NCBI GenBank assembly: GCA_043788365.1
Contig: JAYVTZ010000008.1
Coordinates: 1-49,031 of the forward strand
Direction: 5' to 3'
From: Burkholderiaceae bacterium
Lineage (GTDB): Bacteria > Patescibacteriota > Saccharimonadia > Saccharimonadales > AQU-01
DNA: 49,031 nt
Shown: one piece after another, positions 1 through 23,856 of the stretch
Position numbering within the stretch: the stretch's first letter is position 1
Layout: each line of letters opens with the position of its first letter
Program-made: the position numbers and the translations under genes
The notes under the pieces: model-generated
Databases searched by the model: none
Seen by the model: only the letters and a program-made list of their open reading frames with translations
Told to the model about the DNA's origin: nothing

Positions 1-96
1 TCCTCTACCAGCTCTTGGAGTAGGTAATCGTCCTGTAGAGCAATAGCGCTAGATACTAGGGTGTCTACGGTTTTAACTAAGTTGACTCCACAGCAC

Positions 97-22440: not shown

Positions 22441-23139
22441 ATGCGCTATTCTAGCAATAAGTTTTACTGTTTTTCACCACCGGTAATGCTGGCTACTATA
22501 ATTATTGAAATAGGCCTCTTGCTGTACACTGCAATCCGCTATCCCTTCAAGCCAGTGACCCGGATTGTGATGGTGATGTTATTCCTTTTGGCGCTATTTC
22601 AAATGGCCGAATACAGCATCTGTGGACGTCTTAGTTTGAGCGCCGGAACATGGTCAAGAATGGGCTACGTTGCAATTACCTTATTGCCCGCGCTGGGTAT
22701 TCATCTGATTCAAGAGATATCTAAACGAGGTACGAAATATCTGAAATACTTGGCGTACGCGAATGCATCAGTTTGGGTAGTCGTTTTTGGATTTTCTAAC
22801 AGTGCTTTTCGAAGTTATGTCTGTGAAGGTAACTATGTAATTTTTCACCTTACAAATTTTGCTGACAGCGCTTTCTTCTATTACTACTATTTTTGGCTAG
22901 GCGTAACTTTGTTTTTGATATGGCGTTGGGCCAAGACAGCTGTCAAAAGTCTGCGCGAGGCTTTGATATTGGTAGCGGTTGGCTATCTAGTATTTTTGGT
23001 TCCAACCACAGTAATTAATGGAATTAATGCTGACTCACGAAACGGTGTGCCGAGTATAATGTGTGGATTCGCGGTAATCTATGCAATTATTCTGGTTTTT
23101 GGTGTCTTGCCGATGACACTTGACAAACAAGATGCTTAA
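22441..23139 (+). CDS. Stand-alone 7TM membrane protein
   Basis: Seven hydrophobic segments; CFSPPVM, FQMAEY..C, PSIMCGFA. Confidence 0.7.
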   Translation: MRYSSNKFYCFSPPVMLATIIIEIGLLLYTAIRYPFKPVTRIVMVMLFLLALFQMAEYSICGRLSLSAGTWSRMGYVAITLLPALGIHLIQEISKRGTKYLKYLAYANASVWVVVFGFSNSAFRSYVCEGNYVIFHLTNFADSAFFYYYYFWLGVTLFLIWRWAKTAVKSLREALILVAVGYLVFLVPTTVINGINADSRNGVPSIMCGFAVIYAIILVFGVLPMTLDKQDA

Positions 23140-23154
23140 GTTTTAAATGAAGGT

Positions 23155-23303
23155 ATCTCGTGCGCTCTGCGGCGCGTGACCCGAGCCCTTATACACGAAG
23201 TTTGGTAATCTGATCACAGACTACTTCACTCGGAATAAGAGCCGGGCGAGAACAAAAACAATAAAAACAAAAACCACCTGCCGCGGGTGGGCGCGCACGA
23301 AAC
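23155..23303 (+). ncRNA. Candidate structured ncRNA (6S-like rod with A-rich bubble)
   Basis: tcgtgcgc/gcgcacga closing stem, ctgcggc/gccgcgg, cccg..cttat/ataag..cggg, gaagt/acttc; TTGACA-17-TTAAAT upstream; terminator downstream. Confidence 0.65.
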
Positions 23304-23341
23304 ATAAAGCTGACTCCTATTAACGGAGTTAGTTTTATTTT
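23304..23341 (+). terminator. Rho-independent terminator
   Basis: ataaagctgactcc/tattaac/ggagttagttttat followed by T residues. Confidence 0.75.
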
Positions 23342-23442
23342 AAAATAATTAATAATGTGACTTGTGCCGTTGACATGCGAGGTGTATATTTATCATTTGG
23401 CAGAATTAGGAAGAACAATTAAGTAAATCAAGGGAGACATGC

Positions 23443-23715
23443 ATGAATTTAGTAACACCTGGTAGCCATGTTGGTGAAGCTGGCTCACACGCAAACGAGC
23501 TTGTTATAAGGCAAGCAGACACTGAACACTGGTTAGCACTGGGTCCAGACGGTCAGAGCAAGGTCGTGGACAGTATCAGACAGCACCACCCAAGCCTACA
23601 TATTTCGGACTATGATCACCTTTCTGAGGCTAAGACACCTGGCGCAGTTGTTGATACTGTCACCGCTGTAGGGGTAGCGCCAGACACTGGTAAAGTTGCA
23701 CTATCAGGTCTATAA
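23443..23715 (+). CDS. Hypothetical protein
   Basis: 90-aa ORF, AGGGAG RBS, terminator downstream. Confidence 0.5.
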   Translation: MNLVTPGSHVGEAGSHANELVIRQADTEHWLALGPDGQSKVVDSIRQHHPSLHISDYDHLSEAKTPGAVVDTVTAVGVAPDTGKVALSGL

Positions 23716-23743
23716 GATAGTGCCGAAACAGATGATTTAATAT

Positions 23744-23776
23744 AAAAAAGACCTGAAGATAAACTTCGGGTCTTTT
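23744..23776. terminator. Bidirectional terminator
   Basis: aaaaaagacctgaag/ataaa/cttcgggtcttttt between the convergent ORF and tRNA-Ala. Confidence 0.8.
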
Positions 23777-23779
23777 TCT

Positions 23780-23856
23780 TGGTGGAGCTACAGGGACTCG
23801 AACCCTGGACCTCTTCCATGCCATGGAAGCGCTCTAGCCAACTGAGCTACAGCCCC
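23780..23856 (-). tRNA. tRNA-Ala (GGC)
   Basis: Reverse complement GGGGCTGTAGCTCAGTTGGCTAGAGCG-CTTCC-ATGGCAT-GGAAG...GGTTCGAGTCC...CTCCACCA; G3-U70 identity pair. Confidence 0.96.

Follow-up and report, generated by a model that had tools for sequence, protein, structure and literature searches.

What is encoded at 23150-23345 of the window, the 49,031-nt stretch of contig JAYVTZ010000008.1 (GCA_043788365.1; order Saccharimonadales) that was analysed here? The stretch follows an open reading frame (ORF) of 232 aa and precedes one of 90 aa and, as had been claimed, holds no ORF of 60 aa or more. The original prediction for this locus was a free-standing structured non-coding RNA (ncRNA), and the promoter-like site, helices, A-rich single-stranded tract, competing hairpin and terminator that it listed are all present in the sequence where it had placed them. 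It took the RNA for either a divergent 6S-like RNA of the candidate phyla radiation (CPR) or a member of an undescribed ncRNA class. Judged from sequence comparison, the locus very probably holds an expressed gene for a structured RNA that belongs to a new family. The genome that holds the window, called G000 here, is an assembly of 13 contigs and is 90.8% complete.

Folding of 23150-23345 (+ strand) with RNAfold gave -70.4 kcal/mol, compared with -45.6 ± 3.9 kcal/mol for 200 dinucleotide shuffles, none of which folded as well (z -6.35). Both the minimum free energy (MFE) structure and the centroid are a nested rod at 23158-23300, exactly the structure that had been predicted. The minus strand of this segment also folds well (z -5.46), because any rod does. 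All features of the core are given for the + strand. The outer helix, H1, pairs UCGUGCGC (23158-23165) with GCGCACGA (23293-23300); it is supported by RNAfold, by covariation and by RNAalifold. It encloses an internal loop with a variable 5' side, J1 (UCU in the window, 23166-23168), and a near-invariant 3' side, GGGUGGGC (23285-23292), that is kept family-wide. The second helix, H2, joins GCGGCG, C and the extension GUG (23169-23178) to CAC, C and UGCCGC (23275-23284), as seen with RNAfold, by covariation and in an alignment-free test. Within H2 lie an inserted hairpin, which we call motif 2 (23180-23250; apical UCUG/CAGA; RNAfold) and which is without counterpart in same-genus relatives, and the A-rich tract AACAAAAACAAUAAAAACAAAAAC (23251-23274), which is unpaired in both MFE and centroid structures and forms the apical loop of the core.

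A BLAST search with 23140-23345 matched 22 of 61 related genomes. The only full-length match (79%) was in G015. The same-genus genomes G001-G003 matched 23140-23179 and 23251-23308 contiguously, and the inner hairpin is therefore missing there. The 20 loci that we extracted share a common plan: TTGACA, 16-17 nt, and TATGCT or TATGAT; then, 6-10 nt on, UCGUGCGY, a short variable linker, GCGGCG(CGUG), an A-rich loop, (CACC)CGCCGC, GGGUGGGC, RCGCACGA and a terminator. The family core measures about 75 nt (69-86 nt in most members), with an H1 of 8 bp and an H2 of 6 bp that is lengthened by a C-C mismatch and GUG/CAC, the latter changed to AUG/CAU in two members. With the terminator counted, the RNA is about 190 nt long in the window and about 110-125 nt in most relatives.

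The relatives also refined what had been read from the single sequence. The proposed second stem, CUGCGGC with GCCGCGG, does fold in the window; its UCU/GGG part is not conserved in relatives, where J1 is 1-8 nt long and poor in G. The AAAAAC repeat of the original prediction is present as an unpaired A-rich tract, which across the family proves to be two A-boxes of the AAAAYAAAAA type rather than a hexamer repeat. Additional hairpins can be inserted before, between or after these boxes. The conserved letters of the family lie in its unpaired parts, and the GGUGGGC of the internal loop is retained even where both helices are altered, with single-base variants only (GGUGAGC, GGUGGGA/U/G). A competing hairpin or pseudoknot of CACCC with GGGUG (CCACC/GGUGG) can be drawn here as had been noted; it would cross H2 with 0-3 nt of linker, and divergent members do not keep it. 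We do not count it as part of the structure, because the CAC belongs to the H2 extension. A tiny ORF starting at the GUG in GGGUGGGC was likewise rejected: helix covariation alters its would-be peptide.

Homologs with compensatory changes were found for 13 of the 14 modelled pairs. In an alignment of 88 members, which was fitted to the covariance model, 97.9% of cells pair (83.5% in shuffles), and the 13 pairs change on both sides in 135 cells, a number that averaged 24.9 in shuffles and that none of 500 shuffles reached. By helix, both-side changes affect 7 of 8 pairs in H1 and 6 of 6 in H2. Pairing did not exceed 70% when partners were slid as a control. When 25 diverse members were aligned simply with MAFFT, RNAalifold recovered H1, with six of seven pairs compensatory, and did not recover H2 because MAFFT misaligns the variable linker. 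We therefore examined H2 without an alignment, by taking the hexamer just 5' of the G-run (40 distinct hexamers) and seeking its partner in nt 11-34: a perfect 6-bp partner was found in 80 of 88 members, compared with 2 of 88 for shifted and 12 of 88 for shuffled sequences. The core contains 45 G-U cells and 6 A-C cells, and this excess of G-U indicates that the A-rich (+) strand is the RNA.

With a covariance model, R1, built from 17 of the 20 extracted loci, 97 of 151 genomes of the order (83 of the 130 of high quality) had a match, and each of them had exactly one; the unpublished G036 is counted among the 97, and no other claim rests on it. The refined model R2, built from 88 members, scores the window at 49.9 bits over 23156-23302 and takes the 71-nt hairpin as an insertion. 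In a class-wide sample R2 matched 41 of 46 same-order genomes and 1 of 105 from other orders; this sole outside match, at 34 bits in G316 of a sister order, is plausibly a homolog. One family of the order, f64, carried the RNA in all of its 24 genomes. In a phylum sample it matched all seven same-order genomes, and 144 others gave three weak matches without H1, promoter or terminator, which we attribute to chance. An additional match in G147 (L133:1501-1543, contig C5) was also discarded as chance: it has H1 and GGGUGGGC without H2 or the loop and lies in an open coding frame, whose translation reads as serine hydroxymethyltransferase-like (glyA-like). It is a warning about low-scoring matches of the model.

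An exact pattern scan of one genome per species returned at least 120 loci; among the matches listed, 102 of 120 had an A-box. Where a title names a taxon, these 102 are metagenome-assembled genomes of Saccharibacteria, Saccharimonadales, Saccharimonadia or Saccharimonas, and a few are generically or otherwise labelled bins. Eleven of the 18 loci lacking an A-box were inspected, and all proved to be high-G+C DNA with no A-rich loop, promoter or terminator. The pooled set comprises at least 190 records and at least 176 distinct sequences, titled Saccharibacteria or Saccharimonadales wherever a taxon is named. Neither the core pattern nor the pattern of motif 2 had a match in viral contigs, and a mobile or viral origin was rejected on this ground. 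The RNA is thus an undescribed single-copy family, so far confined to the order Saccharimonadales plus one match in a sister order.

The gene has signals of its own at both ends. In the window the -35 hexamer TTGACA (23120-23125, + strand) falls within the final part of the upstream 232-aa ORF, the stop codon of which (23137-23139) stands between both promoter hexamers, and is followed after a 17-nt spacer by a weak -10 hexamer, TTAAAT (23143-23148, + strand; 4/6). A consensus scan did not list this promoter because of the T at position 2; relatives have TATGCT aligned with TTAAAT, and outside the genus TATGCT or TATGAT stands there. A promoter of the form TTGACN-16..18-TAnnnT occurs no more than 60 nt upstream in 132 of 176 pooled members; at a control position another 400 nt upstream the count is 0 of 113. 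Transcription probably begins 1-3 nt ahead of the 5' strand of H1. It would end at an intrinsic terminator (23304-23345, + strand; RNAfold), a 14-bp hairpin with G-U pairs followed by UUUUAUUUU, and a terminator-like hairpin with a T-run lies 3' of the core in 132 of 173 distinct pooled members. The own promoter and terminator, together with downstream neighbours that differ among members, indicate a free-standing gene and not a leader.

Its surroundings are partly conserved. As had been predicted for Saccharibacteria, homologs lie near ligA and tRNA-Ala: 89 of 106 members have ligA upstream in the same orientation, with a homolog of the 232-aa ORF between it and the RNA gene in 32 of 106, and a tRNA follows within 300 nt, on either strand, in 33 of 114, of which 29 are tRNA-Ala. 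In the window another TTGACA, read by eye and not listed by the consensus scan, stands at about 23372 ahead of the 90-aa ORF (23443-23715), and tRNA-Ala(GGC) occupies 23780-23856 on the minus strand. Neither flanking ORF, of 232 or 90 aa, had a Pfam family. Between the 90-aa ORF and the convergent tRNA-Ala, a GC hairpin at 23730-23779 stands between A-runs and T-runs (aaaaaagaCCTGAAGataaaCTTCGGGtcttttt) and looks like a bidirectional terminator. Four sequencing runs of small share were examined; two soil DNA runs had contigs over the conserved 3' part of the RNA besides tRNA-Ala, and otherwise contigs covered tRNA-Ala only.

Comparison with known RNAs supported the second alternative of the original prediction, an undescribed class. 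With the 4227 models of Rfam 15 the window gave three tRNAs only at gathering score, and 23000-23450 gave nothing meaningful, with no 6S signal, at E≤10. Full-text searches of the literature, supplements not included, on small RNAs and the signal recognition particle (SRP) and its RNA in Saccharibacteria and on non-coding RNAs with covariation in Patescibacteria turned up no such RNA. The models for 6S RNA (RF00013), small SRP RNA (RF00169) and large SRP RNA (RF01854) had no match in G000.

At the level of the order, RF00013 (gathering score 46.4 bits) was over cut-off in 0 of 40 genomes. Three genomes, G020, G029 and G033, hold mutually similar candidates of about 145 nt that score 22-32 bits on the 6S model, below cut-off, at L260:1274-1415 (-), L261:215-363 (-) and L262:1501-1647 (+). 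These start after a TATAAT box, share GAAUA, GGGAG and CACCCACCUGG, and are rod-shaped, with z about -3.9 in the two cases folded. They probably represent the order's own divergent 6S RNA. G029 and G033 carry both such a candidate and, at another locus, the new RNA; none of the candidates was found in G000 by BLAST or motif.

The SRP and transfer-messenger RNA (tmRNA) features said to be absent from the locus are absent by model as well, with no match to RF00169, RF01854 or RF00023 or by ARAGORN. We reject SRP RNA, as there is neither a model match nor an SRP system to be found: none of 41 genomes of the order matched RF00169, a search for the Ffh M domain (PF02978) was negative in all 41 relatives and all 151 phylum-sample genomes (with the control positive in 14 of 14 genomes), and FtsY is absent. 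The SRP54 GTPase domain (PF00448) had nothing over cut-off in G000 and two weak matches, which by our own reading of their translations look like RadA and a PilB/GspE-type ATPase. The loss of SRP in Parcubacteria and many CPR is already on record (PMC4508563, PMC8080830). We reject tmRNA too. ARAGORN and RF00023 found none anywhere in the G000 assembly, which encodes SmpB (L254:1501-1920), and tmRNA is over cut-off in 28 of 31 relatives, the same genus included; the missing tmRNA is therefore most likely an assembly gap. The 3' end of 16S rRNA is also missing from the assembly, and RNase P RNA is present elsewhere in it.

The 71-nt insert of the window (23180-23250) is lacking in most family members and recurs outside the RNA gene. 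Its apex is the 21-mer AAUCUGAUCACAGACUACUUC (23207-23227), which has 17 copies in 13 of the 151 genomes of the order and none for the reversed control. These copies share 18 predicted pairs, 11 of them with compensatory changes, and motif 2 had no match in Rfam 15. We rejected a mobile hairpin like a repetitive extragenic palindrome, as there are 1-3 copies per genome and G000 has one. A metagenome scan for the 21-mer gave 119 loci; 96 were distinct with full flanks, and 39 of these are the motif 2 hairpin. The remaining 57 are not, and many encode INLITDCFP, a conserved transmembrane motif of P-type ATPases, in unrelated organisms (L290, L297, L303, L304, L345, L365 and others). Since the 21-mer matches this coding motif by coincidence, hits for motif 2 in pattern scans have to be filtered by the flanking stems.

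An ORF of at least 60 aa lies within 28-130 nt 3' of 32 of the 54 motif 2 hairpin copies. Pfam was run on 24 of the 32, leaving out seven short ORFs (67-88 aa) and one duplicate, and 18 of the 24 matched a family at E≤0.001, the HVO_A0114 match on L272 falling below its curated cut-off. The families were RsmH, DnaJ and S6 (two each), S2, ClpP, MsrB, GAPDH, YebC, MarR, VanY, tyrosine recombinase, KGG, APH, hydrolase and HVO_A0114, so that rsmH, dnaJ, rpsF, rpsB and clpP are among the genes with motif 2 in the 5' leader. Where motif 2 heads an rsmH leader, GCAAGCAAAAACAAA(C/A)AUG comes next. The rsmH (mraW) leader of G000 (contig C13, about 74000-74150) is long, A-rich and without a Shine-Dalgarno sequence; it reads ACAACAAAAACAAAAACAACAAAAAAACAAAAAUG..., then GCAAAAAUAAAAACAAAAACAAAAAUG, and this latter part closely resembles the A-tract of the small RNA (sRNA). 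Motif 2 is a second undescribed conserved hairpin, which elsewhere stands at the head of mRNA leaders.

What the RNA does can be approached from its interior. In the window this consists of motif 2 and then the A-tract, with no ORF or start codon, clamped by H1 and H2, and it looks like an mRNA leader. For this reason we favour, tentatively and with the balance tilting somewhat against it, a trans-acting leader mimic or protein-titrating decoy: the RNA would imitate an A-rich leader lacking a Shine-Dalgarno sequence and titrate the factor by which such leaders are recognised, be it the 30S subunit together with protein bS1 or some leader-binding protein. We infer this because the conserved letters are unpaired, motif 2 heads the leaders of ORFs, and the rsmH leader is close to the A-tract. 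The A-tract had been proposed as a protein-binding or a templating site. The former is possible, as part of the decoy model; the latter finds no support, and we saw no link to a reverse transcriptase or polymerase, although no specific search for one was made. A more specific version, a "ribosome-side 6S" in which a clade-specific decoy of A-rich leaders sequesters 30S, bS1 or a dedicated factor, is a long shot. If true, such a decoy would give ultra-small epibionts a global throttle on translation initiation, and the embedded motif 2 of G000 would extend it to a second leader-binding factor.

Several observations weigh against a decoy. The invariance of GGUGGGC is not explained by imitation of a leader. 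A-boxes before ORF starts in G000 are only weakly enriched (10/95, compared with 3/95 for the reverse-complement control), and three of the 10 matches overlap at one site. A search of G000, at its 90.8% completeness, did not find Hfq, the protein to which A-rich (ARN) tracts usually bind. Several families of the order scored 0 with R1, and five complete same-order genomes had no credible match even with lax filters, so that in part of the order the RNA is either dispensable or diverged past recognition. Among the 151 genomes, motif 2 lies within the sRNA gene only in G000 and G015, at the same point, and the modular argument therefore rests on two members. In copies of motif 2 the G-U and A-C cells are about equal and favour neither strand, which speaks against reading it purely at the RNA level, as do two tandem copies in G058 (L274:1500-1626). 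These stand antisense in the 23S-5S spacer, between 5S rRNA (1147-1261, -) and the 3' end of 23S (1726-2141, -); in the 23S adjoining these copies there is also a sub-threshold group I intron match (35.7 bits).

Other explanations have to be set beside the decoy. The RNA could be the scaffold of a housekeeping ribonucleoprotein (RNP), with GGUGGGC and the A-loop as protein-docking sites and a role comparable to that of 4.5S RNA, RNase P RNA or tmRNA. Its presence once per genome, a promoter close to consensus, the conserved synteny with ligA (same strand, 89/106) and single-strand letters that stay near-invariant while the helices change sequence would all suit such a part, and unusual RNPs are conceivable where SRP is missing from a whole phylum sample. 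We nevertheless consider a scaffold rather unlikely: the RNA goes undetected in about one-third of the order, including the five complete genomes; no co-located protein gene was seen, the flanking 232-aa and 90-aa ORFs having no Pfam family; and an RNA restricted to one order cannot be a general replacement for an SRP that is missing phylum-wide. A base-pairing regulatory sRNA, whose A-rich loop and/or G-rich bulge would find complementary U-rich or C-rich segments in target mRNAs, is in our estimation unlikely. Accessible conserved single strands on a hairpin followed by a terminator hairpin are the usual anatomy of trans-acting sRNAs. The target search in G000 speaks against it, as the complement of GGGUGGGCGCGCACGA at no more than three mismatches has one site, the gene itself, and the 8-mer GCCCACCC occurs 10 times with no pattern; an A-tract would have low target specificity in a genome of 44% G+C, and the missing Hfq counts here as well.

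A cis element, whether a riboswitch or attenuator, a 3' untranslated structure of the upstream gene or a terminator for the minus strand, would account for a layout of aptamer plus terminator and for the terminator-like score of the minus-strand CCACCCGCGGCAGGUGG with its U-run. It is very improbable given the own promoter in 132 of 176 pooled members, the varied downstream neighbours (often tRNA genes on either strand, with no consistent gene class), the preponderance of G-U over A-C cells (45 to 6) in favour of the + strand, and the failure of divergent members to keep the CACCC/GGGUG hairpin. The divergent 6S-like RNA of the original prediction, binding RNA polymerase through a bubble that resembles an open promoter, is improbable in the extreme. 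The rod of the window does have a one-sided bubble, and with RF00013 over cut-off in none of 40 genomes the 6S slot of the order looks empty. The rod shape, however, is owed to the 71-nt insert, found only in G000 and G015 among the genomes searched; most members have a core of 69-86 nt whose helices measure 8 and 6-10 bp; Rfam gives no 6S signal even at E≤10; and better candidates exist in the 145-nt RNAs at other loci of G020, G029 and G033, the latter two of which carry the new RNA as well.

Whatever its function, this single-copy, strongly promoted and covariation-backed RNA, retained in most genomes of the order, is one of few lineage-specific non-coding genes defined in Saccharibacteria or CPR, for which a covariance model and at least 176 sequences are now at hand. 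The genomes of Saccharibacteria and other CPR are tiny, with such universal machinery as SRP lost, and to our knowledge almost nothing is known of RNA-based regulation in CPR. The locus has also exposed a second undescribed structured motif on housekeeping mRNAs (rsmH, dnaJ, rpsF, rpsB and clpP), and the RNA family and motif 2 together offer handles on how these organisms, which have become culturable alongside their hosts, control gene expression after transcription.

Four kinds of known RNA invite comparison. 6S RNA (RF00013), a rod about 150-200 nt long whose large central bubble lies between long helices, is likewise an abundant-looking free-standing RNA in which the 5' and 3' ends pair and an unpaired region is conserved, and it follows the decoy logic proposed here, the imitation of a nucleic-acid substrate of a central machine. 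The new RNA differs in being half as long and without covariance-model signal; its helices are far too short to fill the polymerase cleft, and its unpaired region is apical in most members, not a two-sided central bubble. CrcZ and CrcY (A-rich CA motifs; Hfq/Crc) and CsrB and RsmZ (GGA loops; CsrA) may resemble it in their repeated single-stranded motifs that look like the mRNA sites of a protein, and the A-boxes recall the A-rich motifs of CrcZ. The new RNA has only two boxes, compared with 5-20 in these RNAs, and no GGA hairpins; there is no sequence or Rfam relation, and Hfq was not found in G000. With 4.5S/SRP RNA (RF00169, RF01854) it shares a length of about 100 nt, a hairpin with paired ends and a single-copy gene of housekeeping type, and it differs in having no GNAR tetraloop, AGCA loop motifs or model match, in a genome where Ffh and FtsY are absent. 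The orphan structured-RNA motifs of the Weinberg/Breaker type in Rfam were found by comparative genomics and have no known function; the new RNA, like them, is defined only by covariation, conserved loops and genomic placement, and unlike them neither its core nor motif 2 is matched by any of the 4227 Rfam 15 models. What is new here is the family; its mechanism may be that of an ordinary sponge or base-pairing sRNA.

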